A stretch of DNA of 29,554 nucleotides, taken from Promethearchaeota archaeon (lineage in GTDB: Archaea > Asgardarchaeota > Lokiarchaeia > Sigyniarchaeales > SOKP01). This document shows, piece by piece, positions 3,360-28,160 of the stretch (within the stretch, counting starts at the first letter, position 1; each line of letters opens with the position of its first letter). The position numbers and the translations under genes were made by a program. The notes below the pieces were generated by a model, which had not been told where the DNA came from, ran no database searches, and saw only the letters and a program-made list of their open reading frames with translations. The stretch is taken from the NCBI GenBank assembly GCA_048938445.1, contig JBHLME010000041.1, forward strand, positions 4,704-34,257. Reading direction: 5' to 3'.

Positions 3360-4337
3360 TTATTTATCAGTTGAAAAATGTTTAAGAAATTGATCTTTTT
3401 TTTCTTTTGACATGCGAATGGTATTGATAAGGGAGGGATCTATACGAAATGCGGAGAGATTCTGGTAAAATTTTATGGGGAGCTTGTTTTGAACACACCA
3501 TTTAGCAAGTTCGACATCATCCTTTAATATTTCAAAATGTTCATAAAATTCATAAGAAGCATTATTTTGAAACCCCCATTTTGCTAACTCTGGAGCTTCT
3601 TTCAACTTATTGAAGTTATCATAGAAAACTTTATGAACTCGATTTTGAAAGGCCCACTTAGCTAACTCCGGATTCTCCTTAAATTTATCGAAATTATTAA
3701 AAAAATCTACATGACTACCCCAATACCACACGGGCGCAGAGTTTCGAAGAACCCATTTTGTAAGCTTTATATTTTTCATTAATTTATCAATATTGTTAAA
3801 AAAAGCTGGAGGGAGATCGTAATAAATGCCTTGAAGTATTATCTTCACAGTTGGAGATTTTACTGAATTAGAAAGGAGTTTAATTTCTTCAAATGAAAAA
3901 TTGTCAAGATACCCTTCTTTATGCAAGTAAATCACCACGTTATCATTGCCCTCTTCCAGCCGATATATTATCTCTTCTTTAAAGACTCTCTTGGCAACGG
4001 GATCCCCTATTTCCGTCAATTTTTTTAGCAAGGGAAATGCCAAATTTCTGTGAAGGAGTCGAGTGTCATAATCATTTTCAACCCAGGCGTGTATGTTCGA
4101 ACAATGTCCCCAAAATTCTTGTTCAGGACTTATGTCTAATTCCTTGTACGTGTTAGATCGATCGTTTTCCTCCATCTCATCTATAGATTGAATGTCATCA
4201 AATTCGTGAACTTCATCAATGGGAAAATTAAAAGCAAGATACTTGCATTGCTGGAATAAATGTTCATCTAAATAGATATTAGTATTAATCCCTTCCAACT
4301 TGAGCGTGATATAAGCGTTAATCTTGAATTCTTTCAT
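3360..4337 (-). CDS. Lokiarchaeal-type conserved N-terminal domain protein (family usually LRR-linked) with C-terminal ~26-aa helical repeats
   Basis: 'EFKINAYITLKLE...FQQCKYL...EQEFWGHCSNIHAWVENDYDTRLLHRNLAFPLLKKLTEIGDPVAKRVFKEEI' matches a domain I recall as expanded in Lokiarchaeia. The C-terminal repeats are directly visible. Confidence 0.75.
   Translation of the reverse strand: MKEFKINAYITLKLEGINTNIYLDEHLFQQCKYLAFNFPIDEVHEFDDIQSIDEMEENDRSNTYKELDISPEQEFWGHCSNIHAWVENDYDTRLLHRNLAFPLLKKLTEIGDPVAKRVFKEEIIYRLEEGNDNVVIYLHKEGYLDNFSFEEIKLLSNSVKSPTVKIILQGIYYDLPPAFFNNIDKLMKNIKLTKWVLRNSAPVWYWGSHVDFFNNFDKFKENPELAKWAFQNRVHKVFYDNFNKLKEAPELAKWGFQNNASYEFYEHFEILKDDVELAKWCVQNKLPIKFYQNLSAFRIDPSLINTIRMSKEKKDQFLKHFSTDK
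3429..3818 (-). repeat. Intragenic tandem protein repeat, ~26 aa x ~4.5 (consensus F(Y/F)xNFxKLKExPELAKWxxQN)
   Basis: Conserved Trp at aa 195, 228, 254, 280 and unit-initial Phe at aa 179, 212, 238, 264, 290. Confidence 0.85.
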
Positions 4338-4776: not shown

Positions 4777-7539
4777 TTATTTCCTTCCTAATTTGATAAT
4801 CATTACAATTACAGTACTTATAAGCCCTATAATTATAACAATGAAAATTATATCAGCTATATCTAATCCATTTAAATTATTATTATTTGAACTTATATTG
4901 AAATCAATTTTAATGCTCGTCTGTGGATCAGTAATAATGAATGTTTCGGTTTTATCTTGCGTTCCGATTATTATTGTATCACCATAATTGAAATTCAAGA
5001 TCGACAAATCAAACTCGTAATGATTATCCATAACATCTATTATTATAGATTCACCATTAGTGATATCTATAACCATTAAATTATATACTCCTTGTACATC
5101 ACCAAATATATAGAACGCTGGAGATGAACTTGCGAATAGTTGCACTTCTTTCACGTGCCACCATTGATTTTGACTGTTATAAGTTCCCGTTATTTTGATG
5201 AACCTTACCTTGGAATTGATCACGTCCCACTGCCACGATTTATGCTCTCCTGAGGTTTTATCCACGACAAGCGTCCAAGTCGTATTGTCCGTGGAAATTT
5301 CAATTTTATATTGATAATATCGATTATCCCCGTCCCAAAAATGGGTTTTAATTGCCCTAATATCATAATTACATGGTAATTCAATGTAAAGTGAATTACC
5401 AAGATCATTTGAAGCATATGTAGTGTCATCATCATCGACCATCTTACCGGCATCAGAGCTTCCATGTGCAATAGAATTAATTATAGGAGTACGGTAAAAT
5501 ACGAGTTCTTGTTCGTATGTGTTTTCGAGACCCCACAAATCCGTTGTTTCTATACGAATCGCATGAGTTCCAATATTATAATCAAACGTGTTTATTTTAA
5601 GTTCGGAAATCGTATCAGAATTGACAAGCCATTCCTTAAAACACAAATCTTCTACATGTTCTCCATCAAGATACCATGAAGCTCTCGTAATTAATTGGGC
5701 GTTTGAAATGCATTGTCCGAAATAAAGTGTCCTTGAAACGCTTGAAGTAGGTGTGGTATATCCAGATATTATAATGTCGCTCGTCGTGGGAATGATATCC
5801 AGATCTTCATTAAAATAATCACATATTCCTTTAAAAATGGCTAGAGCAATCTTGCTTCGAAGATTGATATTTGAGATTAAATTAAAATCTTCCTGATTCG
5901 AAAGGAATACAGGATATACCATTACAGAAGGCATGTTCGTGTTAGAAAGTTCATCAAAATGCCTACCAAGCGTGGTATAATCCCCTTTAGCACCTCTATT
6001 CGTTGTTTCTAAATCTGAAACTATTCGAGTTTGGATGTTGCTTGCAAGGTTAAGTCCATTGACAGAGTATGAAACATCACTTTCAGCCCAATAATAAGTC
6101 TCAGAACCTCTTGTTGCTGTTGATGAATCAAGATTATTACATTGAAGGCTCACAAAAATATCAGCATTATTATCATTTGCAGTAGCGCACCTTTGATCGA
6201 TTGAGACTGCTATATCAGAATCTCTTGTCATTAAAACTGAAGCACCTGCGTATAACAACATTTCTTTCAAGCGTAAACCAACATCAAGATTGAAATCTTC
6301 TTCATTTGGAAATGCAGGACCATCAATCCCGAGAACTCCTGTTTCTGCACCACCATCTCCAGGATCTATGCATATTATCTTTCCTGTCAATGAATTTGAT
6401 ATTTCAGAAAATTTGGAAATAATTAAAGACCAAATATCCGATGTTTCATAACCAAGAGCCCAAAATCCAACTCCTCGAAGATTAATTAAATTAACGTAAT
6501 CAAATTTTAATCCTAAAGATTCTGAATCTTCATACCAACATTGATGCCATTCAGATCCATCTTGATATCGATACCATGGTGTATGTGAGTTAGAATCCCA
6601 AATTCTCCCATATGTTTGAGCATTAATAATAGCATTTCTCAATAAAACACTTACACCAGAACCTATAGTTGAGGCTCCCGCTATACTTGAAGAACAAGGC
6701 CAATCATATCCATAGAAAGGAACTCCTAAGATAATTTGCGAATTTAAGTAATAATTTGTCAATCTATTCACAGAATCAACAATATCAAATTGATTTGGAT
6801 CATCATAAGGAGACACTGCTCCTGTAGTTGGACCACTTCTCCAATGGTAATCATAACCCATGAGGAATACCGCATCAGTATATTGAGATAAATAATTATT
6901 ACGATATATGCTTTCAACACTTCCTGAAACACAAAAAGATATATGATTATTAGGATTAGCAGTTTTGAGAGTATTAAATAGAATTTCCATTAATTGTTCA
7001 AATAATAATAAATTTGAACCTCCTGTAAGGGAATTAGTTGGATTCGGAAATTCAAAGTCCAAATTTACCCCATCAACATTATATGTTTCTAAAACATCTA
7101 AAACATTATTAGCAAAATCATTTTTATGATATGCAAATATACTGTCTTGAGTATTTTGATCAAAACAAGTGATACATATTGTTATTTTAACACTATTTTG
7201 TTGAGCATTTGTTTTTACCGTATTAAATTGGGCAATTCCTGGTGGTGATAACGTTCCATCACTATTTGCGCCCCAAGAAAAATATGCGATATATGTCAGG
7301 GCATCCCAATTTGGTTCATAGGAAGAAGGATTGGTCCAATAAGGCCAAAATCCATAAGTTAGTTTATTTCCCTCTAAATTTGATCTCTTCGGAGTCAAGT
7401 TATCAATATCATTGTTGTTTTCATAAAATTCAGAGATTATAGGATAATTTGATAATGATGAAATATATGTTATTAAAATACACGCAATTAAAACAATACA
7501 AATTTTTCCAGAGCTCTTTTTATTAATCAAATTTATCAC
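4777..7539 (-). CDS. Membrane-anchored GH18 glycoside hydrolase + inactive Amidase_3 domain + Ig-like region + F5/8 type C (discoidin) domain + C-terminal TM anchor
   Basis: N-terminal hydrophobic segment. GH18 motifs DGVNLDFE (D156/N159/D161/E163), LMGYDY, LGVPFYGYDW, GVGFWALG. Amidase-fold domain from aa ~385 with DPGDGG/SLQCN/MVYPVF. Discoidin region ~5131-5480. C-terminal IIFIVIIIGLISTVIVMII-KLGRK. The true start may be TTG at 7530, since the called GTG lies inside an AGGTGAT SD. Confidence 0.88.
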   Translation of the reverse strand: MINLINKKSSGKICIVLIACILITYISSLSNYPIISEFYENNNDIDNLTPKRSNLEGNKLTYGFWPYWTNPSSYEPNWDALTYIAYFSWGANSDGTLSPPGIAQFNTVKTNAQQNSVKITICITCFDQNTQDSIFAYHKNDFANNVLDVLETYNVDGVNLDFEFPNPTNSLTGGSNLLLFEQLMEILFNTLKTANPNNHISFCVSGSVESIYRNNYLSQYTDAVFLMGYDYHWRSGPTTGAVSPYDDPNQFDIVDSVNRLTNYYLNSQIILGVPFYGYDWPCSSSIAGASTIGSGVSVLLRNAIINAQTYGRIWDSNSHTPWYRYQDGSEWHQCWYEDSESLGLKFDYVNLINLRGVGFWALGYETSDIWSLIISKFSEISNSLTGKIICIDPGDGGAETGVLGIDGPAFPNEEDFNLDVGLRLKEMLLYAGASVLMTRDSDIAVSIDQRCATANDNNADIFVSLQCNNLDSSTATRGSETYYWAESDVSYSVNGLNLASNIQTRIVSDLETTNRGAKGDYTTLGRHFDELSNTNMPSVMVYPVFLSNQEDFNLISNINLRSKIALAIFKGICDYFNEDLDIIPTTSDIIISGYTTPTSSVSRTLYFGQCISNAQLITRASWYLDGEHVEDLCFKEWLVNSDTISELKINTFDYNIGTHAIRIETTDLWGLENTYEQELVFYRTPIINSIAHGSSDAGKMVDDDDTTYASNDLGNSLYIELPCNYDIRAIKTHFWDGDNRYYQYKIEISTDNTTWTLVVDKTSGEHKSWQWDVINSKVRFIKITGTYNSQNQWWHVKEVQLFASSSPAFYIFGDVQGVYNLMVIDITNGESIIIDVMDNHYEFDLSILNFNYGDTIIIGTQDKTETFIITDPQTSIKIDFNISSNNNNLNGLDIADIIFIVIIIGLISTVIVMIIKLGRK
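4915..6370. repeat. Copy 1 of ~1.45 kb duplicated module (pseudo-amidase/Ig-like/discoidin)
   Basis: Aligns to 8134-9589 at a constant offset of 3219 bp; 5153-5266 is identical to 8372-8485 (114 bp). Boundaries are approximate. Confidence 0.95.
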
Positions 7540-7594
7540 CTATATTATTTGTTTTTCTCAAAGGTTTTCAAATTAAATGAAAAATGATTTTAAT

Positions 7595-7604
7595 AAAAAA
7601 AAAA
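7595..7604 (-). terminator. Oligo-T (T10) tract, candidate archaeal terminator/attenuator between amidase and GH18 genes
   Basis: A10 on the + strand just downstream of the stop at 7612. AT-rich background lowers significance. Confidence 0.35.
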
Positions 7605-7611
7605 TATATAT

Positions 7612-10377
7612 TTAGTATTCAAACTTACATTTCGTACACACTCTTTTTGACTCATAAACTTTTTTAGGATAATAACTTATAACTTGATTTTTATCGACGA
7701 TTAATTTAATATCTCTTCCTTTAGCGTTACATCTTGGACATTGGAGGTTCTGGTTTAATCCAGAATATATATTTAAATAATTGTTAGCTGGATTTTGATT
7801 AGAAACATTTAATGATGAGTAATCATTATTTTTAATATTTTCTGTAATTTTTTCCGTATTTTGATAAATGTTTGTTTGTTGATTTTTTTGGGTATTTAAT
7901 GAACTTATCAACCTTGAAGTAGAATTATCTTTACGATAAATCTTATTCTCTTTTAATTTTGAACTGACATCTTTAGAAGATTTTTTCTTAGTATAAGCAA
8001 TACCCAATGTTAAAATAACTACTGATAAACCTACAATTATTAGAATATATATCAAATATTGTATATAATCTATAGGAATATCCGGATTTTCTGGTTCTGA
8101 TGAATCACTGTTTATGATTAGATCGATTTTTTTGCTCGTTTGTGGATCAATGACAATGAATGTTTCGGTTATATCTTGAAAAATGATTTGTATCGTATCA
8201 CCATAATTGAAATTCAAGGTCGATAAATCAAATTCATACCATTCCTCTATAACTTCAATCATCATTGATTGACCATTTGTAAGATCTGTGAACGTAATAT
8301 TATCCCCTCCTTGTACATCACCATATACATAGAACGCTGGAGAAGTTCGTGCGAATAATTGAACCTCTTTTACGTGCCACCATTGATTTTGACTGTTATA
8401 AGTTCCCGTTATTTTGATGAACCTTACCTTGGAATTGATCACGTCCCACTGCCACGATTTATGCTCTCCTGAGGTTTTATCCACGGCAAGCGTCCATGTC
8501 GTATTGTCCGTGGAAGTTTCAATTTTATATTGATAATATCGATTATCCCCGTCCCAAAAATGGATCTTAATTGCCCAAATATCATAATTACATGGTAATT
8601 CAATGTAAAGTGAACTACCAAGATCATTTGAAGCATATGTAGTGTCATCATCATCGACCATCTTACCGGTATCAGAGCTTCCATGTACTTTAGAATCAAT
8701 TATGGGAGTACGGTAAAATGCGAGCTCTTGTTCGTATGTGTTTTCGAGATCCCACAAATCCGTTGTTTCTATACGAATGGAATGAGTTCCAATATTATAA
8801 TCAAACGTGTTTATATTAAGTTCGGAAATCGTATCAGAATTGACAAACCATTCTTTAAAACACAAATCTTCTACATGTTCTCCATCAAGATACCATGAGG
8901 CTCTCGTAATTAATTGGGCGTTTGAAATGCATTGTCCGAAATAAAGTGTCCTTGAAACGCTTGAAGTAGGTGTGGTGTATCCAGATATTATAACGTCACT
9001 CGTCGAGGGAATGATATCCAGATCCTCATTAAAATAATCACAGATCCCTTTAAAAATGGCTAGAGCAATCTTGCTTCGAAGATTGGGATTTGAAATTAAA
9101 TTATAATCTTCCTGATTTGAAAGGAAAACAGGATATACCATTACAGAAGGCATGTTCGTGTTAGAAAGCTCATCGAAATGCCTATCAAGCGTGGGATAAT
9201 CCCCTTTAGCTCCCCTGTTCGTTGTTCCTAAATCTGACACTATTCGAGTTTGGATGCTACTTGCAAGGTTAAGTCCATTGACAGAGTATGAAACATCACT
9301 TTCAGCCCAATAATAAGTCTCAGAACCTCTCGTTGCCGTTGATGAATCAAGATTATTACATTGAAAGCTCACAAAAATATCTGCATCATTATTATTAGCA
9401 GTAGCACACCTTTGATCGATTGAGACGGTTATATCAGAATCTCTTGTCATTATAACCGTGCCACCTGCGTATAACAACATTTCTTTCAATCGTAAACCAA
9501 CATCAAGATTGAAATCTTCTTCATTTGGAAACGCAGGACCATCAATCCCGAGAACACCCATATCAGTACCACCATTTCCGGGATCAATGCAAATTCTTTT
9601 ATCTTCTATTCCATCAGAAGGATCTGAAGGAAAAACTGGTGTAACTCCAAAATAACTACAAATCCCTCTATAAATACCTACTGCAGCTTTATAACGGTTG
9701 TTAGCGATAGAAATGTAGTTAAAATCATCTTGATTTGACATGAATACACATTCGGGTAATGCTGCGGGCATATCAGTGTTACTAAGAACATATAAATGAT
9801 AGGTTAAATAAGGATAATCCATTTTTATTCCCCTATCGATCCTCCCCATCTCTAATATTAATCCTTTTTGGATACCATCAGCTAATCTTCTTCCATTTAC
9901 TGAATATACAGAACTACTTTCACCCCAATAGAGGGTTTCAGTACCTTTTGCAGCAGAATTAGAATTAGCATTATTATGAACACTAACAAAAATGTCTGCA
10001 CTATTGCTATTTGCGATACTGCATCTAGATGCAAGTGATACAGTTGTATCACTAGTTCTCGTCATGATGACCGTGGCTCCAGCATATATTAATAGATCTC
10101 TTAGGTGTAAAGAAATATCAAGATTGATATGTTTTTCATCAGGATATCCTGATCCATCAATTCCTGTTGTTCCTGATTCAGTACCTCCATGGCCTGGATC
10201 AACACAAATTTTTTTACCTGATAAAATGGCAGATGATTTTAATTCTTCATTTCGAGAATCTTTACTTTTATCAACTAATAATCCTGTATTTAATGTGTTT
10301 ATAGATATGAAAATAAGAAAATTTGTAGTAATTATACAAATGATTATTATTACAATCGAAATCTTTTTTGATTTCAT
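7612..10377 (-). CDS. Membrane-anchored N-acetylmuramoyl-L-alanine amidase (Amidase_3, intact) + inactive Amidase_3 + Ig-like + discoidin + TM + cytoplasmic C4 zinc finger
   Basis: Domain 1 has all four canonical residues: H63 (DPGHGG), E81 (DEKHINL), H134 (SVHNNA), E209 (LPECVF). Domain 2 has N268/E286/Q339/Y415. N-terminal TM/signal, TM at ~7992-8067, Lys/Asn-rich linker, terminal CPRC...CTKC. Confidence 0.9.
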   Translation of the reverse strand: MKSKKISIVIIIICIITTNFLIFISINTLNTGLLVDKSKDSRNEELKSSAILSGKKICVDPGHGGTESGTTGIDGSGYPDEKHINLDISLHLRDLLIYAGATVIMTRTSDTTVSLASRCSIANSNSADIFVSVHNNANSNSAAKGTETLYWGESSSVYSVNGRRLADGIQKGLILEMGRIDRGIKMDYPYLTYHLYVLSNTDMPAALPECVFMSNQDDFNYISIANNRYKAAVGIYRGICSYFGVTPVFPSDPSDGIEDKRICIDPGNGGTDMGVLGIDGPAFPNEEDFNLDVGLRLKEMLLYAGGTVIMTRDSDITVSIDQRCATANNNDADIFVSFQCNNLDSSTATRGSETYYWAESDVSYSVNGLNLASSIQTRIVSDLGTTNRGAKGDYPTLDRHFDELSNTNMPSVMVYPVFLSNQEDYNLISNPNLRSKIALAIFKGICDYFNEDLDIIPSTSDVIISGYTTPTSSVSRTLYFGQCISNAQLITRASWYLDGEHVEDLCFKEWFVNSDTISELNINTFDYNIGTHSIRIETTDLWDLENTYEQELAFYRTPIIDSKVHGSSDTGKMVDDDDTTYASNDLGSSLYIELPCNYDIWAIKIHFWDGDNRYYQYKIETSTDNTTWTLAVDKTSGEHKSWQWDVINSKVRFIKITGTYNSQNQWWHVKEVQLFARTSPAFYVYGDVQGGDNITFTDLTNGQSMMIEVIEEWYEFDLSTLNFNYGDTIQIIFQDITETFIVIDPQTSKKIDLIINSDSSEPENPDIPIDYIQYLIYILIIVGLSVVILTLGIAYTKKKSSKDVSSKLKENKIYRKDNSTSRLISSLNTQKNQQTNIYQNTEKITENIKNNDYSSLNVSNQNPANNYLNIYSGLNQNLQCPRCNAKGRDIKLIVDKNQVISYYPKKVYESKRVCTKCKFEY
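8134..9589. repeat. Copy 2 of ~1.45 kb duplicated module
   Basis: Colinear with 4915-6370 (offset 3219 bp), with scattered substitutions. Boundaries are approximate. Confidence 0.95.
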
Positions 10378-10875: not shown

Positions 10876-12021
10876 ATGACAAGTCAAAAATTCCTTCAAG
10901 TATTTATTGTTTTGAGAACAATAATTAATGTTTATTTTTTTATTATTGTACCTATGAATAATGAAAATGATCTTTATTTTTCAGTCTATAATAATGATTC
11001 TAATGGCTATTCCTCTTACCGGGAAGCAATTGAAAGTCGTGGTTACGAAGTAATGAGCTTGCAATCAAGTTTAAGCGCAATTAATAATATAGATAAATCA
11101 ATATGCTTGGTTTTGCTCGGACCTAACCAATTTTATGATCCAATATTTGATATTCCTTTCTTTATAGATTTTTTAAGAGATGAAAATTATGATAATTCAA
11201 TATTAATTTGTCATGAATACGGTTGTACAAATACATTATTATATGAAATTATGTTAGCAAGCATTCGGAACCTTTGGAGTGATCCTGATCCAGAAATTTT
11301 TCCTTTAGCAATTTTTGCAGATGGTCTCTTAAGAGATAACTTCTCATGTTTACAAAATGATGTTGGATTAGTAGATCCCACGTATCCAATAGTGAAAATA
11401 ACTGAAAGCCATCCCACAACAACAGGGATAGATGAAGTTGTTCTTTCTCAAGCAACGGCTGCAGCAGGAGGAAGAGTTCTTTATGAAGCACTGGGTTGGG
11501 ATGTAATTGGAGAAACTACACCATTTTATAGCTGGGTTGATAAAAATGGTGATGGAGAATTTAAAACATTACCAAATAGCACGATTCCTGCTGATGATTA
11601 TCTTGACTTGTCTTATTTAATTGGTATTGTAGATGGACTATTAGGAGGAGGTATTAATACTAGTATTTTAGAAAGATTCCCACTTGGTGGCGCAGGTTTT
11701 GACCCTATGGTATTTCTGGCTAAGGAATTGGATAATAATAGGGTATATATAACTTCAGATGCGAGTTGTTTCTCAAACGATTTAATAGATGAATGTGATA
11801 ATTTACAATTTGGACTCAATATTATTGATTGGCTTACTTACAATGGTATTGATGACCCAGATGATTGGATTATTGTTTTTGATGAAACGCATATTCGTTC
11901 AGAAGATTCACCAGAATTAACCTATATAGGAATTTTAATAATTTTTATTGTAATGAATTTAATTTTAGTCATTCTTATTGTAATAATATTAAAGGTAATA
12001 ATTCACCCTCGATTACCTTAA
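10876..12021 (+). CDS. DUF4350-like membrane-anchored surface protein
   Basis: N- and C-terminal TM segments. 'FSVYNNDSNGYSSY', 'LVLLGPNQFY', 'RVYITSDASCFSNDLI...NLQFGLNIIDWL' and 'IVFDETH' fit the DUF4350/GATase-like fold pattern. Confidence 0.65.
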   Translation: MTSQKFLQVFIVLRTIINVYFFIIVPMNNENDLYFSVYNNDSNGYSSYREAIESRGYEVMSLQSSLSAINNIDKSICLVLLGPNQFYDPIFDIPFFIDFLRDENYDNSILICHEYGCTNTLLYEIMLASIRNLWSDPDPEIFPLAIFADGLLRDNFSCLQNDVGLVDPTYPIVKITESHPTTTGIDEVVLSQATAAAGGRVLYEALGWDVIGETTPFYSWVDKNGDGEFKTLPNSTIPADDYLDLSYLIGIVDGLLGGGINTSILERFPLGGAGFDPMVFLAKELDNNRVYITSDASCFSNDLIDECDNLQFGLNIIDWLTYNGIDDPDDWIIVFDETHIRSEDSPELTYIGILIIFIVMNLILVILIVIILKVIIHPRLP

Positions 12022-16365: not shown

Positions 16366-17721
16366 ATGAAACCTAGACAACAAACAGCATTATTCGTATT
16401 AATTGCTGTAATATCTACTGCAGGTATCGTGGGGGGTATCATGTATGTTCTTCTTAATCCTGCGACTCCAGAAGGGAACTCTATTGAAATATATCATTGG
16501 TGGACATCAGGTGGAGAAGCTACTGCAATAAACGGATTAATAGATGTATTTGAAGCGAATTATCCTGGAACGACTGTATATTCAGTTCAGATTGCTGGAG
16601 GTGCTGGAGCAGAAATGAGAACTAAAATCAAAACGTTAATGATTGCAGGAGAACCACCAGATACGTTTCAAATACATGCCGGATATGAATGGAAAATTTT
16701 CTATGAGGGAGGATTCTTGGAACCTATAAATGATATTTGGACACCAGAATTACAAAGTGTTATACCAGACGTTATAGAAGATATGAACAAAGGTCCCGAT
16801 GGAAATTATTATTCTGTACCTGTTAATATTCATAGAAGTAACTTAATCTGGTATAATAAACATATTCTAGATAACAACGGAATTGATCCTGCAACATTAA
16901 CAACGTGGAATGCATTTTTTTCAGCTTGCCAAACTATACAGGCTAATAATTTTAGTGTTTCAGGTAGTCCTGTTGCAATGGGGAAAACTTGGACAGAAGT
17001 ACATGCTTTCGAAACTATAATGGCAAGCCAAGGAATGAATGCTTATGAAGCTTGGATTAATGGTGATATTGATAGCACGGGGGCCACTTATTATCCTGAT
17101 CTACTCCAAGCTTGTATTGATTTCGACAACTTGACAAGTAATTATATCAATTCTGATTATGTAGGAATAGATTGGGACAGCGCTCTAGCAAAAATAATTT
17201 CAGTTATTTCACCTACTGCTGCTTTTAGTATAATGGGTGATTGGGCTGATGGAGAATTTCAACAGGCGGGATGGACATTTAATACAGATTATGGTGTAAT
17301 ACCTGTTCCAGGGACAAATAACACTTATGGGCTTGTAGTAGATTGTTTCGAAAAACCAAAAAATATCGAACACCCTACAAATGTGGGTAGATGGTTAACT
17401 ACAGTCAGTTCTGTAGCAGGTCAAGATGCATTCAATCCTTCGAAAGGATCAATTCCTGCACGAACTGATTGCAATGTATCACTCTATGGACCTTATCAAC
17501 AATGGGCAATGTCAGATTTTAGTATTGTTGATGCTTCTGGAACCTTTTTTCCATCAGTTGCTCATGGAAGTGGTATACCTGAAGAGTTTGCTACAGATTT
17601 AGGACCTATCATTGGATCTCTTACAGCTGGTTCAATAACTCCTGCTCAAGCAGCAACTCAAATTGTAGCTTTAGCTGTAACATATAGCACTGATTTCACG
17701 AGAATATGGGCGTTAGATTAA
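16366..17721 (+). CDS. Carbohydrate ABC transporter substrate-binding protein (glucose/mannose-binding type, CUT1)
   Basis: N-terminal TM anchor; 'EIYHWWTSGGE', 'PPDTFQIHAG', 'VPVNIHRSN', 'IMGDWADG', 'FNPSKGSIPARTD', 'PSVAHG'. Confidence 0.92.
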   Translation: MKPRQQTALFVLIAVISTAGIVGGIMYVLLNPATPEGNSIEIYHWWTSGGEATAINGLIDVFEANYPGTTVYSVQIAGGAGAEMRTKIKTLMIAGEPPDTFQIHAGYEWKIFYEGGFLEPINDIWTPELQSVIPDVIEDMNKGPDGNYYSVPVNIHRSNLIWYNKHILDNNGIDPATLTTWNAFFSACQTIQANNFSVSGSPVAMGKTWTEVHAFETIMASQGMNAYEAWINGDIDSTGATYYPDLLQACIDFDNLTSNYINSDYVGIDWDSALAKIISVISPTAAFSIMGDWADGEFQQAGWTFNTDYGVIPVPGTNNTYGLVVDCFEKPKNIEHPTNVGRWLTTVSSVAGQDAFNPSKGSIPARTDCNVSLYGPYQQWAMSDFSIVDASGTFFPSVAHGSGIPEEFATDLGPIIGSLTAGSITPAQAATQIVALAVTYSTDFTRIWALD

Positions 17722-17749
17722 ATGATGTATAATTTAAAATTTTTAAATC

Positions 17750-17762
17750 TTCTTTTTTTTTT
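17750..17762 (+). terminator. Oligo-T tract after the SBP gene (partial intra-operon terminator)
   Basis: TTC followed by T10 (17753-17762), ~30 nt after the stop codon, preceded by an AT palindrome at 17732-17748. Confidence 0.45.
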
Positions 17763-17800
17763 ATTATTGATTTAACTTAATAAATGATAAAGGTGACAAA

Positions 17801-18772
17801 ATGAAAGCATTGAAAAAAGAACACTGGAATACTAATAAAAGTATTTTAATTAATATAAATGGAATCCCTAAGACAAAATGGATAATGAAATCAATCTTTG
17901 CTAGGGATAAATTCATAATTAGGTTAATTTTCATTATTTCTTGTATTTTAATTATATATTTCGTTTATTTTTTCATAGTTTGGAATGTAATCGTGTCATT
18001 GACAGGTTGGGAAGGATTAGTTCAAACTTATGATTTTATTGGTCTTGAAAATTATTCTCAAATGAGCCAGGATTACGTTTTTTGGACTTCATTACTAAAC
18101 AACTTCATATTTATGGGAATATTTATCCCTTCTAGTATTATTTTAGGTCTTTTGTTAGCTATAATATTAGATCAAAAGGTTAAAAGAGAAGGATTTTTTA
18201 GGTTGATCTATCTGCTCCCCTATGCCCTTTCATTTGTAGTTACGGCATATTTATGGCAGTGGATGTTTACTAGTGATGGTGTATTAAATATTTTAATTGA
18301 TGCAATAGTACCTGGAACTATCGAAATATCTTGGTTAGGAAATCGCTATTTAGCACTTGTAAGTATTTCAATTGCTATGATTTGGCAATTTTCTGGTTAT
18401 GTAATGTTGGTTTTTTTAGCAGGAATAAGATCAGTTCCCCCTTCTATTATTATGGCTGCTAGGATAGATGGTGCTTCTGGATTTAAATTATATACCCGTA
18501 TAATTATTCCACAAATTAAAACTTCTGCATTTACAGCTTTTGTTATTCTTATGATTTTTACATTAAAAGCCTTTGATTTTATTTATCTATTAACTGGTGG
18601 TGGTCCGGGATATGGTACTTATATTCTTCCAATTATGATGTACGAAGAAGCTTTTGCAAAAAATCAATTTGCTTATAGTTCAACTATCGCTACGACCTTA
18701 TTGATAGTCGTTATGATGATAACCATTCCTTATCTTTACATTACATACAGAAAGAGGGATAATCAAAAATGA
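17801..18772 (+). CDS. Carbohydrate ABC transporter permease 1 (MalF/UgpA-like)
   Basis: 'FIGLENY', EAA-loop variant 'AARIDGASGFKLYTRIIIP', 'LTGGGPG'; AGGTGA SD upstream. Confidence 0.93.
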   Translation: MKALKKEHWNTNKSILININGIPKTKWIMKSIFARDKFIIRLIFIISCILIIYFVYFFIVWNVIVSLTGWEGLVQTYDFIGLENYSQMSQDYVFWTSLLNNFIFMGIFIPSSIILGLLLAIILDQKVKREGFFRLIYLLPYALSFVVTAYLWQWMFTSDGVLNILIDAIVPGTIEISWLGNRYLALVSISIAMIWQFSGYVMLVFLAGIRSVPPSIIMAARIDGASGFKLYTRIIIPQIKTSAFTAFVILMIFTLKAFDFIYLLTGGGPGYGTYILPIMMYEEAFAKNQFAYSSTIATTLLIVVMMITIPYLYITYRKRDNQK

Positions 18773-19686
18773 CTTTAGATAATATGATTGAGATGATCAA
18801 TTCAGAATTAGATAATGAAATGGTATTTTCTATAAAGAATAACTCGAAAACAATATTATTCTATAAAATAAAGCGAACAATTAAACGTGTGACCCTTTAT
18901 GTGTTTTTAATTATAATGGCAATTATAATGTTCATACCCTTATGGTCTGGAATCATAGCTGCTTTCAAATCTCAAGCAGAATTATCTTTAACATCACCGC
19001 TTTTACCCTCGTTAAGTCCAACATTAGATCCTCTTACTGCAGCTATGAATGAATTGATGAGACCCATGCTGAATTCATATCTATTCACGTTTATGGCAAC
19101 AATCGGATCTTGTTTGATAGGATCTATATGTGGGTTTGTATTAACAAAATTAAAATTTAAAGGATCTAACATCGTGTTTCTTTTCCTTATAATAGGAATT
19201 TTTCTTCCATATCAATCAATTATAATCCCTCTTTTTATAACAATAAGGGATTTAGGATTATATGATTCTCTATGGGGTATGACTGTGGTACACATAATAT
19301 ATGGAATTCCAATAACAACATTACTTTTTAGAAGCTATTATGAGAACATACCGGATAACTTGTTAAACGCAGCTAAGGTTGATGGTGCTGGAATAATGAC
19401 CATTTATAGGCGGATTATCCTCCCGTTATCTCCTCTACCTTTTGTCGTAGCAGCGGTTTTTCAATTTACAACAATTTGGAATGATTATCTCTTTGCTTTG
19501 ATACTCACAGGATCAGATTTTGAACCCGCTTCATTTGCACTTTCAAACCTTGCTGGAGGAACAGAAACAGCATGGAATAATACGATGGCAGGAGCTCTCT
19601 TATATTCATTACCAATTATATTTATTTTTATATTTTTAGGTAAATATTTAATGCAAGGATTAATAGCAGGAGCGATAAAAGGATAG
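18769..19686 (+). CDS. Carbohydrate ABC transporter permease 2 (MalG/UgpE-like)
   Basis: 'IPDNLLNAAKVDGAG', 'FTTIWNDYLFAL', 'GLIAGAIKG'; ATGA overlap with the previous gene. Confidence 0.93.
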   Translation: MTLDNMIEMINSELDNEMVFSIKNNSKTILFYKIKRTIKRVTLYVFLIIMAIIMFIPLWSGIIAAFKSQAELSLTSPLLPSLSPTLDPLTAAMNELMRPMLNSYLFTFMATIGSCLIGSICGFVLTKLKFKGSNIVFLFLIIGIFLPYQSIIIPLFITIRDLGLYDSLWGMTVVHIIYGIPITTLLFRSYYENIPDNLLNAAKVDGAGIMTIYRRIILPLSPLPFVVAAVFQFTTIWNDYLFALILTGSDFEPASFALSNLAGGTETAWNNTMAGALLYSLPIIFIFIFLGKYLMQGLIAGAIKG

Positions 19687-19698
19687 GAGTGATTTAAA

Positions 19699-20805
19699 AT
19701 GGTAAACGTAAAAATAAAGAATTTAGTGAAGAAATATGGTAAAACAATAGCAGTAAATCATGTAAATTTAGAAGTCAAAGATGGTGAATTATTTATACTA
19801 CTTGGACCATCTGGATGTGGAAAATCCACTACGCTTTTAAGTATTGCTGGATTGATTAATCCAGAAGAAGGTGAGATTTGGTTTGGAGATAAAATAATTA
19901 CTGATGCAAGTAGGAATTATTTTCAAAGGCCACAAGATAGAAACGTTGCAATGGTTTTTCAAGATTATGCAATTTATCCCCACTTGACGGTTTTTAAGAA
20001 TATTGCATTCCCTTTACAAGTTAGAAAAGTTGAATCAGAAAAAATTAATAAATTAGTTACTGAAGTTGCGAAGAGTCTAGATATTGAAAATCTGTTAGAA
20101 AGGAAACCAAGGCAATTAAGTGGTGGCCAAAGGCAAAGAGTAGCTCTGGCAAGAGCAATTGTTAGGCAACCTAATATCTTCTTGATGGATGAACCCCTTT
20201 CTAATCTTGATGCAAAATTGAGAGTATTTGCTCGAGCAGAATTAAAAAAAATGCATAAAAAATTAGGTATAACTATCATTTATGTAACTCACGACCAAAT
20301 CGAGGCATTATCTATGGGGAATACTATTGCTATTTTAAATAATGGTAATTTAGAACAAGTAGATACACCAGATAATATATATAATCGTCCAAAAAATATT
20401 TTCGTGGCGGGATTCATTGGAAGTCCCCCAATGAATATGATTGATGGTACTATTGAAAAAAATAATGATGAACTATTCATCAATGTTTATTTTAAAAAAT
20501 TAAAACTTAATAAAAATCTAGAGAAAGATAAATACATTATATATGATAAAATAATCTTAGGGATAAGACCAGAAGATATTTTATTATCGAAAAATAACAC
20601 CAATAATTCTGTCGAGGCAAAAATTGATATTATAGAACCAATGGGGAGAGAATTTGAAATTCATTTGCTTATAGGTAATAAACCAATTATTATGGTCTCC
20701 AAAATTATTGATGATATGAAGGTTGGTGATATTGTGTATCTCCATTTTAATAATGAAAAATTCCACGTGTTTGATAAAGAATCAGGTGAAAATATCTTTA
20801 CATGA
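19699..20805 (+). CDS. Carbohydrate ABC transporter ATP-binding protein (MalK/UgpC family, C-terminal TOBE)
   Basis: Walker A GPSGCGKS, Q-loop MVFQDYA, signature LSGGQ, Walker B FLMDEP, H-loop YVTHDQ, FIGSPPMN, LGIRPED. Confidence 0.96.
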   Translation: MVNVKIKNLVKKYGKTIAVNHVNLEVKDGELFILLGPSGCGKSTTLLSIAGLINPEEGEIWFGDKIITDASRNYFQRPQDRNVAMVFQDYAIYPHLTVFKNIAFPLQVRKVESEKINKLVTEVAKSLDIENLLERKPRQLSGGQRQRVALARAIVRQPNIFLMDEPLSNLDAKLRVFARAELKKMHKKLGITIIYVTHDQIEALSMGNTIAILNNGNLEQVDTPDNIYNRPKNIFVAGFIGSPPMNMIDGTIEKNNDELFINVYFKKLKLNKNLEKDKYIIYDKIILGIRPEDILLSKNNTNNSVEAKIDIIEPMGREFEIHLLIGNKPIIMVSKIIDDMKVGDIVYLHFNNEKFHVFDKESGENIFT

Positions 20806-23113: not shown

Positions 23114-25714
23114 TTATTTATAAAAATAGATACTCAATTCAAGCTCTTCTATAGATTCTTTATTATCAGGATTGTCTTTAATTGTTGATTCTTTAGCTTT
23201 TTCAATAATTTCCAATTTCTTTATCCTTATCGTGTTTTCAATATCTTCTTTCAAGTTTTTAAGAAATTGTAATTGTTTCTTTTCTGTTAATATTATTACT
23301 TTTGAAACTTCTTGATTTAATGGTATCTGTAATGAGGATTTAATAGTTCTTAGATTTTTAATTATATCAAGTCCAACTTTACCCTGTTCCGCTGATTCTT
23401 CAGAAAGATTTTCATAAGTTGATGGCCATTTCTCCAAATGAATTGATTTTTTATTATTAAAAGCTTTATACAAGATAGAATTGATTTCTTCTGAAATGAA
23501 CGGCATTATTACTGCAAATATCTTTAACATGCGATAAAAAAGATTTAGTGCATTTTTTAGTGCAAATTCTCGCTTTTTTTGATCATCTGAATAAAATTTG
23601 TATTTTATTGCCTCAATGTAATTATCACAAATATCATTCCAGAAAAATGGTCGTAGAAGGGCAAATCCTTCGTGCCAATTATATCCATCAAAATATTCAT
23701 TAATAGCAAGGAGCTTCTTGTTATATTCTGAAAAAATATAACTTTCAATGGGAGAAAGTTGTTTATCGTCAATTTCTATATCGTTAATCTTAATTTTATC
23801 TAAATTAATTTTTAAGAATCTATAAGCATTCCAGATTTTTGTTAAAAACCTTGATGCTCCTATTAATTGTTCATATCTTCTTTTATATTTATTATTAAAT
23901 TTATTTTCAGGAAGGCGTTGCATTTCTTTTTTGATAAATTCATCGCTTACAGGTTGTTTTGATTGTATATTAATCCAAGTATATTCGAAAGGGTAATCAT
24001 CACCTAAAGAACCCATTGCTCCCCATTGTCTTATGGCATCTGCTCCAAATTCCGGCATAACCTCATCAGGAGAAACGATATTTCCGAAACTCTTCGACAT
24101 CTTTCTACCATCAGGCCCTGCTACCATACCATTTATCATCGTTTCGGAAAATGGGGCTTTCCCGGTTAATTTTTTGCATCGAAATAGAGTATAAAACAAC
24201 CATGTTCTAATGATTTCATATCCCTGGGGTCTATGGACATTTGCTCTCATATAGGTCTTATTAAAGAAGTCATCATCATCCAACCATTTAGCAATGGCTA
24301 ATGGCGTGATGCTCGAATCAATCCAACAATCACAAACATCCTTTTCACCTTCTATATTTGAACTCTTACATTTTGGGCATTTTTTAATAGGAGATTGCAA
24401 TGTTATTGGGTCTAAGGGTAAATCCTCTTCTTTAGGAGCGATAATTTCTCCACAATCCCGGCAATACCAGAATGGAATTGGCGTGCCAAATACTCGCTGT
24501 CGAGAGATGACCCAATTCCAATCAAGGCCTTCACACCAATCCAATAACCTTTGCTTATGTTTTTCTGGATACCATTTCATAGCTTCTCCAGATTCGATTA
24601 TCTCTTGTGTGAAATCTTTTACGTTGATAAACCATTGATAAACGGGTAAAAATTCAATAGGTTTCCTACAAGACGAACGTTCTGTATGAATGACCACCCT
24701 ATGTTCATAATCCTTGATATCCGTGATTAATCCCATTTTATCCAGATCTTCTACAATTTTTTTTCTTGCTTCTAAAATCGTCATTCCCTTGTATTTAGAA
24801 TTTTCATTCATGTGTCCATCTTCAGTAAATATTTGAATTTCATCAAGTCCATGTTCAAATTTCCATTTGATATCCATTTCATCCCCGTATGTACAACAAT
24901 ATACAATTCCTGTTCCAAAATTCATATCTACATTTCTATCCATTTCGATTCGAACTGTACGGTCCGTTAAGGGGATCTTAACCTCAGCAGCAGAAAGGTG
25001 ATAATATCTATCATCATTTGGATGAATAAAAACACCAACACATGCTTCTATATATTCAGGTCGGGTGGTCGCAATAGTAATGTATTCATTTTCAGCACCA
25101 ATAATTGGTAATTTTAAATACCATAGCTTTCCCTCTTCATCTTGATATCCTACTTCTGCTTTTGCCACTGAAGTTTCACAATTCACGCAAAAATGAGTAG
25201 GAAATTTTTCTCGGTATAACCAACCCTTTTTATAAAAATATAGTAATGACCATTGAACCTTATATTTATATTCATCATCCATCGTGCGATAGGTGTAATT
25301 CCAATCCGTGGAATATCCCATTTCATCAAATTGTTTTGTCATGTTTTTAATGTTATTGTCCACCCATTCAATGCACTTTGTTAAGAACTTTTCCCTCTCA
25401 TGTTTTGAAATTCCATAGTTTTTTTCAACAGCAAGTTCTACTGGAAGCCCATGGCAATCAAATCCCTGAGGAAAGTAGACATTTCTCCCTTTCATTTTGT
25501 TATATCTTGCAACAAAATCTATCCAGGAGTGGTTTAAAATATGCCCTAAATGTAATGTTCCGCTTACAAACGGAGGAGGCGTGTCAATTGTAAAGATATT
25601 CTTGCCCTCTTTAATGTCAAAATTATTGATTTTTTCCTTACGCCAATAATCTGTCCACTTTTTTTGGACTTCATCAAATCGAAATCTTTTTGGATATGCA
25701 GTTTCTTGTGTCAT
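23114..25714 (-). CDS. valS: Valine--tRNA ligase (archaeal type)
   Basis: 'IDTPPPFVSGTLHLGH' (HIGH), 'GFDCHGLP', 'IATTRPE', 'FGTGIV', 'WNWVISRQRVFGTPIP', 'RPQGYEIIRTW', KMSKS. No bacterial C-terminal coiled-coil arm. Its stop abuts the scpB stop with no gap. Confidence 0.96.
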   Translation of the reverse strand: MTQETAYPKRFRFDEVQKKWTDYWRKEKINNFDIKEGKNIFTIDTPPPFVSGTLHLGHILNHSWIDFVARYNKMKGRNVYFPQGFDCHGLPVELAVEKNYGISKHEREKFLTKCIEWVDNNIKNMTKQFDEMGYSTDWNYTYRTMDDEYKYKVQWSLLYFYKKGWLYREKFPTHFCVNCETSVAKAEVGYQDEEGKLWYLKLPIIGAENEYITIATTRPEYIEACVGVFIHPNDDRYYHLSAAEVKIPLTDRTVRIEMDRNVDMNFGTGIVYCCTYGDEMDIKWKFEHGLDEIQIFTEDGHMNENSKYKGMTILEARKKIVEDLDKMGLITDIKDYEHRVVIHTERSSCRKPIEFLPVYQWFINVKDFTQEIIESGEAMKWYPEKHKQRLLDWCEGLDWNWVISRQRVFGTPIPFWYCRDCGEIIAPKEEDLPLDPITLQSPIKKCPKCKSSNIEGEKDVCDCWIDSSITPLAIAKWLDDDDFFNKTYMRANVHRPQGYEIIRTWLFYTLFRCKKLTGKAPFSETMINGMVAGPDGRKMSKSFGNIVSPDEVMPEFGADAIRQWGAMGSLGDDYPFEYTWINIQSKQPVSDEFIKKEMQRLPENKFNNKYKRRYEQLIGASRFLTKIWNAYRFLKINLDKIKINDIEIDDKQLSPIESYIFSEYNKKLLAINEYFDGYNWHEGFALLRPFFWNDICDNYIEAIKYKFYSDDQKKREFALKNALNLFYRMLKIFAVIMPFISEEINSILYKAFNNKKSIHLEKWPSTYENLSEESAEQGKVGLDIIKNLRTIKSSLQIPLNQEVSKVIILTEKKQLQFLKNLKEDIENTIRIKKLEIIEKAKESTIKDNPDNKESIEELELSIYFYK

Positions 25715-26859: not shown

Positions 26860-27429
26860 TCAACTAATCTTCTTAGTGTTGAAAAGATATACAAAGTTTG
26901 TAATTACTGCGCTAATTGGAATGCTAAAAAGAATAATTAATCTAGCCCCTTCAATCTCAAATAGAAGCATGAGTATTGCTCCTAACGCTATGATAATCGC
27001 TCCAGATGTTTGAGTAATATACTTTTCTTTATACGCAATCCACAAAAGGAAAAAAACATATGGAACATTAAATACAAGCCCAGTTATTACTCCTGGAAAA
27101 TAATCGCTAAATATAATTGTCAAAAAAAAATGGAAAAACGCGTTAGAAAACTGTGCTGCTGCGAGTAAGGTTAAAATGAAGTATGCATTTGTACGATTAG
27201 GCTGGAGAGTGAATAAGATAAGCAAGATAATATATACTATTATGATGAACAAATAAGTTATTAAAAAATTAATAAGACTCAAATCCACTCCAAAGTGCCT
27301 ATATATGTAATTGGAAAAGCCAAATACTCCTTCTTCAATGATATGTATCACAAAAATTAAGGGTGAAAACCAAATTGCTTTTTTAAATGTGAAGTTATGG
27401 AATAAATTTTCAATGCTAAATTTGCTCAT
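26860..27429 (-). CDS. HXXEE domain membrane protein (paralog 1)
   Basis: 'VIHIIEE', 'NAFFHF', 'YFPGVITG'; multi-TM. Confidence 0.88.
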   Translation of the reverse strand: MSKFSIENLFHNFTFKKAIWFSPLIFVIHIIEEGVFGFSNYIYRHFGVDLSLINFLITYLFIIIVYIILLILFTLQPNRTNAYFILTLLAAAQFSNAFFHFFLTIIFSDYFPGVITGLVFNVPYVFFLLWIAYKEKYITQTSGAIIIALGAILMLLFEIEGARLIILFSIPISAVITNFVYLFNTKKIS

Positions 27430-27575: not shown

Positions 27576-28160
27576 TCATTTCTTACTTTTAGATTTGAAA
27601 TAATAAATAATGTTTGTTGCTACTACTATAATTACTGAGATTACTAGTGTTGCTATTTGAAGACCTGGTAACTCAAATAAAAACATGAGCGTAAATCCTA
27701 ATAATACGATGAGAATAGCCGTAGTTTTTGTGATAAATTCATCTTTATAAGCAATCCACAAGAGAATGCTCACATAGGGGACATATAATGCAAAACCAGT
27801 AACTACACCTGGACAATATTCCATGAAGACAATAGTCCAATATAAATGGAAGAACGCATTAAAAAACTGTGCTGCAGTGAACAAGGTTAAAACAAAGAAT
27901 GCATTTGCACGATTAGGTCGAAGAGTGAATAAGATAAGTAAGACAATATAAACTAACATTATGAACATGTTCGCTATTAGAAAACCGGGAAGACCGAAAT
28001 TTACTGATAAACCTCTATGTATAGCCACGAAATCGTAAAAACGAAATACTGCCTCTTCAATCATATGAAACAAATAAAGGATAGGTGCGAGCCAAACTGC
28101 CTTTTTAAATGGAACCTTATCCAGTGTTGTTTTAATTTTTGAAATACTCATTTTACTCAT
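27576..28160 (-). CDS. HXXEE domain membrane protein (paralog 2)
   Basis: 'LFHMIEE', 'NAFFHL', 'YCPGVVTG'; colinear with paralog 1 (FKKA.W..P, LLILFTL.PNR.NA, AAQF.NAFFH). Confidence 0.88.
   Translation of the reverse strand: MSKMSISKIKTTLDKVPFKKAVWLAPILYLFHMIEEAVFRFYDFVAIHRGLSVNFGLPGFLIANMFIMLVYIVLLILFTLRPNRANAFFVLTLFTAAQFFNAFFHLYWTIVFMEYCPGVVTGFALYVPYVSILLWIAYKDEFITKTTAILIVLLGFTLMFLFELPGLQIATLVISVIIVVATNIIYYFKSKSKK

Follow-up and report, generated by a model that had tools for sequence, protein, structure and literature searches.

We analyzed a window of 29,554 nucleotides from a Promethearchaeota archaeon (GenBank assembly GCA_048938445.1, contig JBHLME010000041.1, positions 4,704 to 34,257); all coordinates below refer to this stretch at its full length unless another locus is named. 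The subject of this report is a pair of neighbouring minus-strand open reading frames (ORFs), whose predicted products carry bacterial-type enzyme domains on a common stalk with a membrane anchor: P0001 (4777-7539, 920 amino acids (aa), GTG start), headed by a glycoside hydrolase domain of family GH18, and P0002 (7612-10377, 921 aa, ATG start), headed by an Amidase_3 domain. The database copy of P0001 has 917 aa, so its start may be a TTG three codons further in. Pfam assigns Glyco_hydro_18 to residues 65-364 of P0001 (109 bits, cut-off 29.6), covering 3-316 of the 317 profile positions, Amidase_3 to residues 389-573 (128.2 bits) and F5_F8_type_C to residues 693-798 (34.1 bits, cut-off 28.2). 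P0002 contains two Amidase_3 stretches with a summed score of 292.8 bits (cut-off 27), the best of them at residues 57-240. The F5_F8_type_C match in whole P0002 (567-671) scores 26.6 bits, slightly below the cut-off of 28.2, and is found on the isolated stalk in all nine family members.

The part behind the heads is nearly the same in both proteins: residues 378-894 of P0001 align without gaps to residues 251-767 of P0002, with 438 of 517 positions identical (85%, BLASTP). This shared part begins with an amidase-like domain, and domain 1 of P0002 has just 50% identity to it. The best PDB match of the CBM32 domain in the stalk is the CBM32 of AlyQ (3.1e-13), and the last beta domain matched CarboxypepD_reg in two of nine members. 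The Ig-like assignment (residues 578-690) comes from structural look-alikes in the Atlas, bacterial Ig (Big_7-like) models with TM values of 0.62-0.70, and is a lead only. Hydropathy reveals exactly two hydrophobic segments per protein. Net positive charge precedes the N-terminal one; in P0001 and P0002 the C-terminal one is preceded by net negative charge and followed by a charge of +3/+4. These flanking charges obey the positive-inside rule, and the predicted topology places the enzyme domains of both proteins outside the cell, tethered to the membrane. The positions of all features are collected in Table 1.

Table 1. Features of the GH18-amidase locus, with window coordinates and residue numbers of the encoded proteins
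Feature	Coordinates	Strand	Remarks
P0002, amidase protein, 921 aa	7612..10377	-	signal/anchor segment, predicted active Amidase_3, degenerate Amidase_3, Ig-like, CBM32, beta domain, transmembrane helix, cytoplasmic tail with Zn domain
P0002 N-terminal hydrophobic segment, residues 6-24 (signal peptide or signal anchor)	10306..10362	-	hydropathy only; net charge +3 before
P0002 Amidase_3 domain 1, residues 55-246, intact H63, E81, H134, E209	9640..10215	-	Pfam and alignment
P0002 degenerate Amidase_3 domain 2, residues 260-452; N268, Q339, Y415 replace His, His, catalytic Glu	9022..9600	-	
P0002 stalk: Ig-like 453-563, F5_F8_type_C/CBM32 567-671, C-terminal beta domain 672-765	8083..9021	-	
P0002 transmembrane anchor, residues 775-793	7999..8055	-	net charge -4 before, +4 after
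P0002 cytoplasmic tail: Asn/Gln/Ser-rich linker 794-876, C-terminal (CxxC)2 Zn domain 877-921	7615..7998	-	
72-bp spacer; T run after P0002 stop codon; A/T-rich stretch just before P0001 start	7540..7611	-	
P0001, GH18 protein, 920 aa	4777..7539	-	signal/anchor segment, GH18, degenerate Amidase_3, Ig-like, CBM32, beta domain, transmembrane helix, five-residue tail
P0001 GH18 domain, residues 65-364; D156, N159, D161, E163, Y229-D230, W360	6448..7347	-	
P0001 degenerate Amidase_3, residues 387-579; D395, Q466, Y542	5803..6381	-	
P0001 stalk: Ig-like 580-690, F5_F8_type_C/CBM32 693-798, beta domain 799-890	4870..5802	-	
P0001 transmembrane anchor, residues 897-915; then five residues, three basic	4795..4851	-	

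The four residues expected of a working Amidase_3 enzyme are kept in the first domain of P0002, where H63, E81, H134 and E209 align with their counterparts in the solved amidases Cwp6, 4RN7 and CwlV. The coordinating histidines and glutamate, as well as a further glutamate, are described as conserved across Amidase_3, including LytH, in the available part of PMC9245657. Fold and residues point to an active amidase that would cut the bond between N-acetylmuramic acid (MurNAc) and L-alanine. The shared amidase-like domain is clearly of the same fold, scoring 200-212 bits against domain 1 of P0002, and has replacements at both histidines and at the catalytic glutamate (N268/D395, Q339/Q466 and Y415/Y542 in P0002/P0001); the ligand glutamate alone is kept. 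The same state is found in P0036, the ortholog of P0001 in the same-genus genome G004, so the degenerate residues are not a sequencing error. By its residues, the shared domain should not count as an enzyme of the family. Its ratio of non-synonymous to synonymous substitution rates (dN/dS) is 0.16 for the orthologs as well as for the paralogs (0.21 for the GH18 domain): the degenerate amidase is under purifying selection and represents a maintained pseudo-enzyme. The simplest reading is that it probably serves as a wall-binding module.

A first-pass annotation of this DNA had described two co-oriented genes of about 920 aa, 72 bp apart, with an intact Amidase_3 or GH18 head, a common pseudo-amidase/discoidin stalk and an extracellular, tethered topology. 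All of this withstood the analysis, down to the catalytic numbering (E209, E163), which is exact. Its description of the stalk as followed by the anchor is accurate for P0001, which ends five residues after the helix, and incomplete for P0002, where a 128-aa cytoplasmic tail follows that had been overlooked.

Homologs of the pair indicate how it arose. Outside the tail, matches were found in only two of 40 other related genomes, G020 and G004. In G020, from the sister genus, one 1244-aa gene (P0004) unites GH18, an intact Amidase_3, a second Amidase_3, the stalk, a transmembrane helix and the Zn tail; its second Amidase_3 has lost the first His alone. In G004, a gene with GH18 and the degenerate amidase lies at a contig end, the contig stopping just upstream of that gene. 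A metagenome contig (P0005/L059) and metagenome-assembled genomes (MAGs) of Thermoplasmata (P0006-P0009) likewise encode GH18, an intact Amidase_3, the stalk and a transmembrane helix in a single gene, and the Thermoplasmata homologs bear the NCBI name N-acetylmuramoyl-L-alanine amidase. GH18 and the intact amidase thus share one polypeptide in most family members. A metagenome scan with P0002 alone returned nothing; with alignment A1 it returned 68 loci, of which L059, the one examined, is a single bifunctional gene without a tandem pair. No second split pair was found, the state in G004 being hidden by the contig end.

The tree of amidase domains agrees with this picture: domain 1 of P0002 pairs with domain 1 of G020 (99/89 support), and the degenerate domains form a long-branched clade. 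Verrucomicrobiota and a bacterial-like cluster branch beside the archaeal group with 81-91% bootstrap, without singling out a donor. The tree omitted the near-duplicates P0003, P0013-15, P0021 and P0033, the split hit P0030, the short L031 hit, and L019-L021, which are the same proteins as P0008, P0010 and P0007. At the DNA level, P0001 and P0002 are 90-99% identical over residues ~408-797 and far less beyond, whereas P0001 and its ortholog share only ~80% over those residues. As the paralog cores are this much more alike than the orthologous ones, gene conversion between the tandem copies would explain the pattern best. Judged from these comparisons, the pair is a tandem duplicate of a bifunctional gene with complementary loss of heads—a lineage-specific split and not a separate architecture. 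The first-pass interpretation needs changing here: the paired, shared-stalk design is not primary, and is a derived split of a bifunctional family that Thermoplasmata have as well. The proposal that the two heads are functionally coupled, by contrast, gained strong support, because homologs bear both in one polypeptide.

The explanation that we regard as probable is that P0001 and P0002 form a cell-surface, membrane-tethered enzyme pair degrading bacterial peptidoglycan, in a Loki-lineage host in which no murein-synthesis family was found. The P0002 amidase would strip stem peptides from the foreign wall, and the YaaH/SleL-like GH18 of P0001 would cleave glycan containing N-acetylglucosamine (GlcNAc). 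The shared stalk would be built of a non-catalytic amidase-fold wall binder, an Ig-like spacer, a CBM32 sugar binder, a beta domain and a C-terminal transmembrane helix. The ancestor would have been one bifunctional gene with GH18, Amidase_3, stalk and transmembrane helix, surviving in Thermoplasmata, a sister genus and metagenomes. In the genus studied here, tandem duplication would have left each copy with one active head; the shared amidase domain would have lost its metal-binding and catalytic residues and stayed under selection, and gene conversion would keep the stalks alike. Acting on a foreign wall, we infer, the pair may serve the scavenging of peptides or amino sugars or antagonism; of the purposes named in the first-pass annotation, necromass feeding, antagonism and partner handling are all candidates.

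Several observations weigh against this explanation. The topology is based on hydropathy and charge only, and Pfam finds no recognised wall-binding domain (LysM, SH3, PG_binding) in P0001 or P0002. Gram-negative cells, as long as they are intact, keep their wall out of reach of a tethered enzyme. MurQ and NagA have no match above cut-off in the genome, which weakens the case for amino-sugar feeding: nothing points to a breakdown of amino sugars along the pathway that bacteria usually employ, and peptide scavenging or antagonism stay candidates. The neighbourhoods of the homologs (G020, G004, two Thermoplasmata loci and L059) share no genes, so no pathway context backs any particular use. No enzyme assays exist for members of this family. 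Some further points concern the GH18 head and are taken up with it below.

Individual homolog loci show features of their own. In two Thermoplasmata loci a gene for a peptide-processing enzyme flanks the hydrolase (L024 10041-11327 and L021 6711-7817, both on the minus strand); one locus has a gamma-glutamyltranspeptidase, the second an M29 aminopeptidase-like gene. These could fit a use of stem peptides, but with only two loci chance may have put them there. Some Thermoplasmata family members (L022, L024 and P0011) are devoid of the transmembrane anchor and share instead a C-terminal domain of ~90 aa without a Pfam name. In G020, the fused GH18-amidase gene has as its immediate downstream neighbour a heliorhodopsin gene (L017 10195-11040, minus strand, 298 bits), and a MacB/FtsX-type ATP-binding cassette (ABC) exporter lies upstream.

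The GH18 head is the component whose substrate is most open to argument. In the PDB, the head scores highest among single domains against the cortex-lytic SleL (74.8 bits, 27-324 of the 326-aa query aligned), followed by YaaH (67.8 bits) and two ChiW domains (45-49 bits each), and the automatic label of the Joint Genome Institute (JGI) on many GH18 relatives is 'spore germination protein YaaH'; the SleL/YaaH-like character proposed at first sight is borne out by both. The classical GH18 catalytic motif is DxxDxDxE. P0001 reads D156-x-x-N159-x-D161-x-E163, so that its D-x-E pair, nearly invariant in 52 relatives, is intact as claimed. The Asn159 in place of the second Asp weighs against the favoured explanation; this position is occupied by Ser or Cys in the Thermoplasmata homologs and by His in SleL. 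The DGxNxDxE motif that the first-pass annotation gave for SleL was not seen at the aligned positions of the solved SleL chain.

The strongest competitor, unlikely in our judgement, holds that the two proteins have separate jobs: the GH18 protein would harvest chitin or chito-oligosaccharides, or trim the chitobiose core of N-glycans, the pseudo-amidase would be an inherited spacer, and only P0002 would touch peptidoglycan. GH18 enzymes are mostly chitinases, and the top whole-sequence (summed) PDB score belongs to a cell-surface Paenibacillus chitinase with two GH18 domains. Among 19 close representatives scanned singly, all with GH18, 14 are without an amidase or other wall-related domain, and the closest relatives in which GH18 stands alone bear the names Dehalococcoidia, Methanoperedens and Methanosarcina. 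CBM32 binds varied sugars, its PDB matches coming from alginate lyases and an N-acetylglucosaminidase-family protein, and a CUT1-type sugar ABC transporter is encoded ~6 kb away. The available text of PMC11218509 lists many non-chitin GH18 substrates, so that family membership does not give away the substrate.

What tells against separate jobs is chiefly the company that the GH18 domain keeps. Beyond its fusion to the intact amidase in most family members, a GH25 muramidase holds its position on the same scaffold in a 1284-aa Thermoplasmata protein (L024), where Amidase_6, SH3_3 and GH25 are combined with Amidase_3 and CBM32. Of the 19 close representatives, three add Amidase_3, the domain order varying, and the GH18 subfamily has also been joined independently to other amidases: one representative carries Amidase_2, and one carries Amidase_6 with the same CBM32 and CarboxypepD_reg stalk. 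No chitin-binding family occurs among the 25 most frequent of 43 families in a Pfam tally of 52 relatives, drawn from 150 listed representatives, and the genome's want of a NagA above cut-off speaks against chitin harvesting as well. Sequence alone does not decide the substrate; we infer that peptidoglycan is favoured, because GH25 replaces GH18 on the same scaffold and because the subfamily is fused to Amidase_2 and Amidase_6. Going by these architectures, the GH18 of P0001 most likely cleaves the GlcNAc-containing glycan of the wall.

A different role might be read from the tail of P0002, which runs 128 aa past the transmembrane helix, through a linker rich in Asn, Gln and Ser, to a (CxxC)2 C-terminal domain of ~45 aa. 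P0001 and the Thermoplasmata homologs are without it. Matches to P0002 were obtained in 37 of 41 related genomes, mostly via the tail and not the enzyme part. All 12 aligned tails keep the four cysteines, every tail is C-terminal, and no Pfam family reaches its cut-off there. A profile of the 12 tails matched residues 286-331 of 7WHG chain G, the Lokiarchaeota gelsolin 2DGel, with E 1.1e-5, the next match being at 0.025. According to the available text of Akil et al. 2022 (PMC9433394), the Loki Zn domain is widespread in Loki, always C-terminal, and present on 2DGel as well as on unrelated multi-domain proteins; it is not consistently found outside Loki. The isolated domain showed no F-actin binding in vitro, and in the authors' view it likely binds some cellular feature. 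By this profile match, P0002 is a predicted bacterial-type ectodomain joined to a Loki-specific cytoplasmic module.

The Zn domain recurs on other proteins of these archaea. It ends soluble proteins of 150-340 aa, several per genome (L008-L016, and L053-L056 in the host's own genome), behind a coiled coil and Pro/Gln-rich low complexity; with proline-rich stretches next to a domain that is associated with gelsolin, a link to the actin system may exist. Two membrane proteins have the Zn domain at their end as well, L051 (G020:C200, 80-2422, minus strand, 780 aa) and L052 (G008:C267, 621-2621, 666 aa). Both are laid out as an N-terminal hydrophobic segment, an ectodomain of ~350 aa, a transmembrane helix, a low-complexity linker, a coiled coil and the Zn domain, and their ectodomain has, by eye, a putative transglutaminase-like Cys/His/Asp pattern. 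These archaea may repeatedly have joined an ectoenzyme through a transmembrane helix to a Zn domain.

The proteins could then be receptor-like adhesins, an idea to which we give a low probability: the pseudo-amidase and CBM32 would bind the wall, and the Zn tail of P0002 would report or anchor the contact at the feature bound by the Loki gelsolin Zn domain. The purifying selection on a non-catalytic amidase fold would suit such a role, as would the profile match to 2DGel and the succession of transmembrane helix, low-complexity linker and Zn domain, which recurs on other ectoproteins of relatives and on the fused P0004. On the other hand, the intact active heads argue for catalysis, P0001 and the Thermoplasmata homologs have no tail, no partner of the Zn domain is known, and the domain did not associate with F-actin when isolated (PMC9433394). 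The 'sensing' function in the first-pass annotation likewise received no direct support. Slightly less probable again is P0002 as an outside-in coupler, its ectodomain engaging a bacterial cell and its Zn domain docking the contact site to an intracellular partner shared with 2DGel; if true, contact with bacteria would be linked to cytoskeleton-driven membrane behaviour in an Asgard archaeon.

To return to the enzyme pair acting on bacterial peptidoglycan, the host genome bears on whose wall is attacked. Remodelling of the archaeon's own envelope, by cleavage of a glycan or peptide-linked polymer of its own, is a reading that we hold to be quite improbable. Both enzymes are anchored in the membrane of the producer, and Methanosarcina and Methanoperedens, where close stand-alone relatives of the GH18 are found, have envelope polymers of their own; but neither Mur_ligase_M nor FtsW/RodA (SEDS) has a match in the host genome (96.5% complete), in line with the original expectation of a host without murein synthesis, and the genes are rare. 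Beside the two genomes in 40 with non-tail matches, Amidase_3 was found in eight of 400 genomes of the phylum, seven above cut-off, this genome included. Envelope housekeeping is not expected of genes missing from most close relatives. Since no Mur ligase or SEDS family was found, any peptidoglycan substrate would be a foreign wall. The genome's sole Amidase_3 and GH18 matches are those of this locus, and with such rarity in the phylum the locus counts as accessory and is no general property of Asgard archaea.

That the genes reached the MAG as bacterial contaminants or through a chimeric join is very unlikely: estimated genome contamination is 8.17%, the catalytic domains are of bacterial type and the G+C of both genes (0.34-0.37) is slightly above the flanks, but the amidase ORF itself ends in the Loki-specific Zn domain, the contig also encodes ValRS, a Ras-family GTPase and ScpB of archaeal or Asgard-like type, and the same genus and the sister genus hold an ortholog and a fused homolog. 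The contig ValRS is 69-81% identical to the other 119 of its best 120 matches, and all named ones are Promethearchaeota, Lokiarchaeota or other Asgard; the Ras-family GTPase lies 2.3 kb from P0001, and the genome has actin-family matches of up to 424 bits. The contig is Asgard, as initially claimed, and the locus is native to the archaeon. Exact matches to the locus occur in sediment metagenomes of three studies: one Logan contig spans the gene junction (6283-8401) with zero mismatches, from a run that may be the source sample, and runs of two further studies hold exact pieces inside both genes. Among the matches listed, none of the pieces from runs X3, X5 and X7 bridges both genes, and no RNA runs with the locus are listed. 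A scan of a viral collection gave one weak amidase-only match at 30% identity, which gives no sign of a viral vector.

It is established that archaea have taken over peptidoglycan hydrolases from bacteria (Strock et al. 2025, PMC12352652); that work cites a GH25 muramidase of Aciduliprofundum boonei and describes for weaponised archaeal hydrolases a patchy distribution like that of this locus. As far as its available text goes, the likeness comprises bacterial-type wall-cutting domains in murein-less archaea, patchy spread and predicted export. The present proteins differ in being membrane-anchored and bifunctional or split, one with a Loki cytoplasmic domain. That survey demanded a catalytic and a recognised cell-wall-binding domain; P0001 and P0002 are without the latter, whereas L024 has SH3_3. 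Its main text does not contain the words Asgard, GH18, Amidase_3, transmembrane or tethered, and its supplements (S2 Table) may list related proteins.

Other known systems resemble single aspects of the locus. Autolysins of the staphylococcal Atl type are bifunctional amidases and glucosaminidases, built of Amidase_2, GH73 and repeat domains. They combine stem-peptide removal and glycan cleavage in one product, as the fused P0004-P0009 would; here the domains are Amidase_3 and GH18 with CBM32, Ig-like parts and a C-terminal transmembrane helix, and the predicted target is a foreign wall, not the cell's own. SleL/YaaH are N-acetylglucosaminidases of family GH18 that act on the spore cortex, and have N-terminal LysM domains and a spore-forming host. 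SleL, the best single-domain match of the GH18 head, shares with P0001 the replacement of the second motif Asp (His in SleL, Asn in P0001); P0001, however, is without LysM, and its archaeal host forms no spores. The best NCBIfam model for the amidase heads is the spore-cortex Amidase_3 protein CwlD, with a score of 189.6 that stays below the cut-off of 221.55. Non-catalytic peptidoglycan-recognition proteins also retain a conserved amidase fold without metal and catalytic residues, yet theirs is Amidase_2 and not Amidase_3, and for the domain described here wall binding is putative and no signalling output is known. The Zn domain matches that of the Loki gelsolin 2DGel in length, (CxxC)2 pattern and extreme C-terminal position. 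In P0002 it stands behind a transmembrane helix on a mostly extracellular protein of bacterial origin, a combination not mentioned in the available portions of PMC9433394. In the literature, supplements apart, we found no description of this architecture, of an Asgard or membrane-tethered peptidoglycan hydrolase, or of one joined to a lineage-specific cytoplasmic domain. Archaeal peptidoglycan hydrolases being already known, what is new here is the Zn-domain tail and the pseudo-amidase under selection.

Further genes of the window are listed for completeness of the locus. Just downstream of P0001, the gene at 3360-4337 (minus strand) has no Pfam match and belongs to an expanded paralog family with 11 matches in this genome, 12-36 in four of five same-genus genomes and none in the fifth; its members have a conserved N-terminal region of ~160 aa, then repeats of ~85-115 aa. 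The upstream neighbour (10876-12021, plus strand, 381 aa) has a weak DUF4350 match and, at another place in the genome, a paralog with 72% identity; related genes of the genus sit in open frames of 615-623 aa, and this copy may be a shortened form. A comparison of flanking genes with five other genomes of the genus found both flanks to belong to paralog families, so an empty-site comparison is impossible. The sugar transporter mentioned above (16366-20805, plus strand, opposite to the pair) is complete, with a solute-binding protein, two permeases and a MalK-like ATPase. At 26860-27429 and 27576-28160 (minus strand) lie neighbouring genes for two paralogous membrane proteins of the HXXEE family, and ValRS (23114-25714, minus strand) has an insert at residues 373-427 with a sub-threshold DUF6487 match, the same family being found in some Asgard ValRS homologs.

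The physical dealings of Asgard archaea with bacteria—feeding, fighting, partner holding—bear on models of the origin of the first eukaryote, and the locus offers testable items for their study: a surface amidase (E209), a GH18 partner (E163) and a Zn-domain tail whose putative partner could be caught. The conserved pseudo-amidase may be a new kind of wall-binding module. The pair also provides a clear natural case of a bifunctional enzyme that was, on the comparisons given here, split into two genes via duplication, complementary loss and gene conversion.

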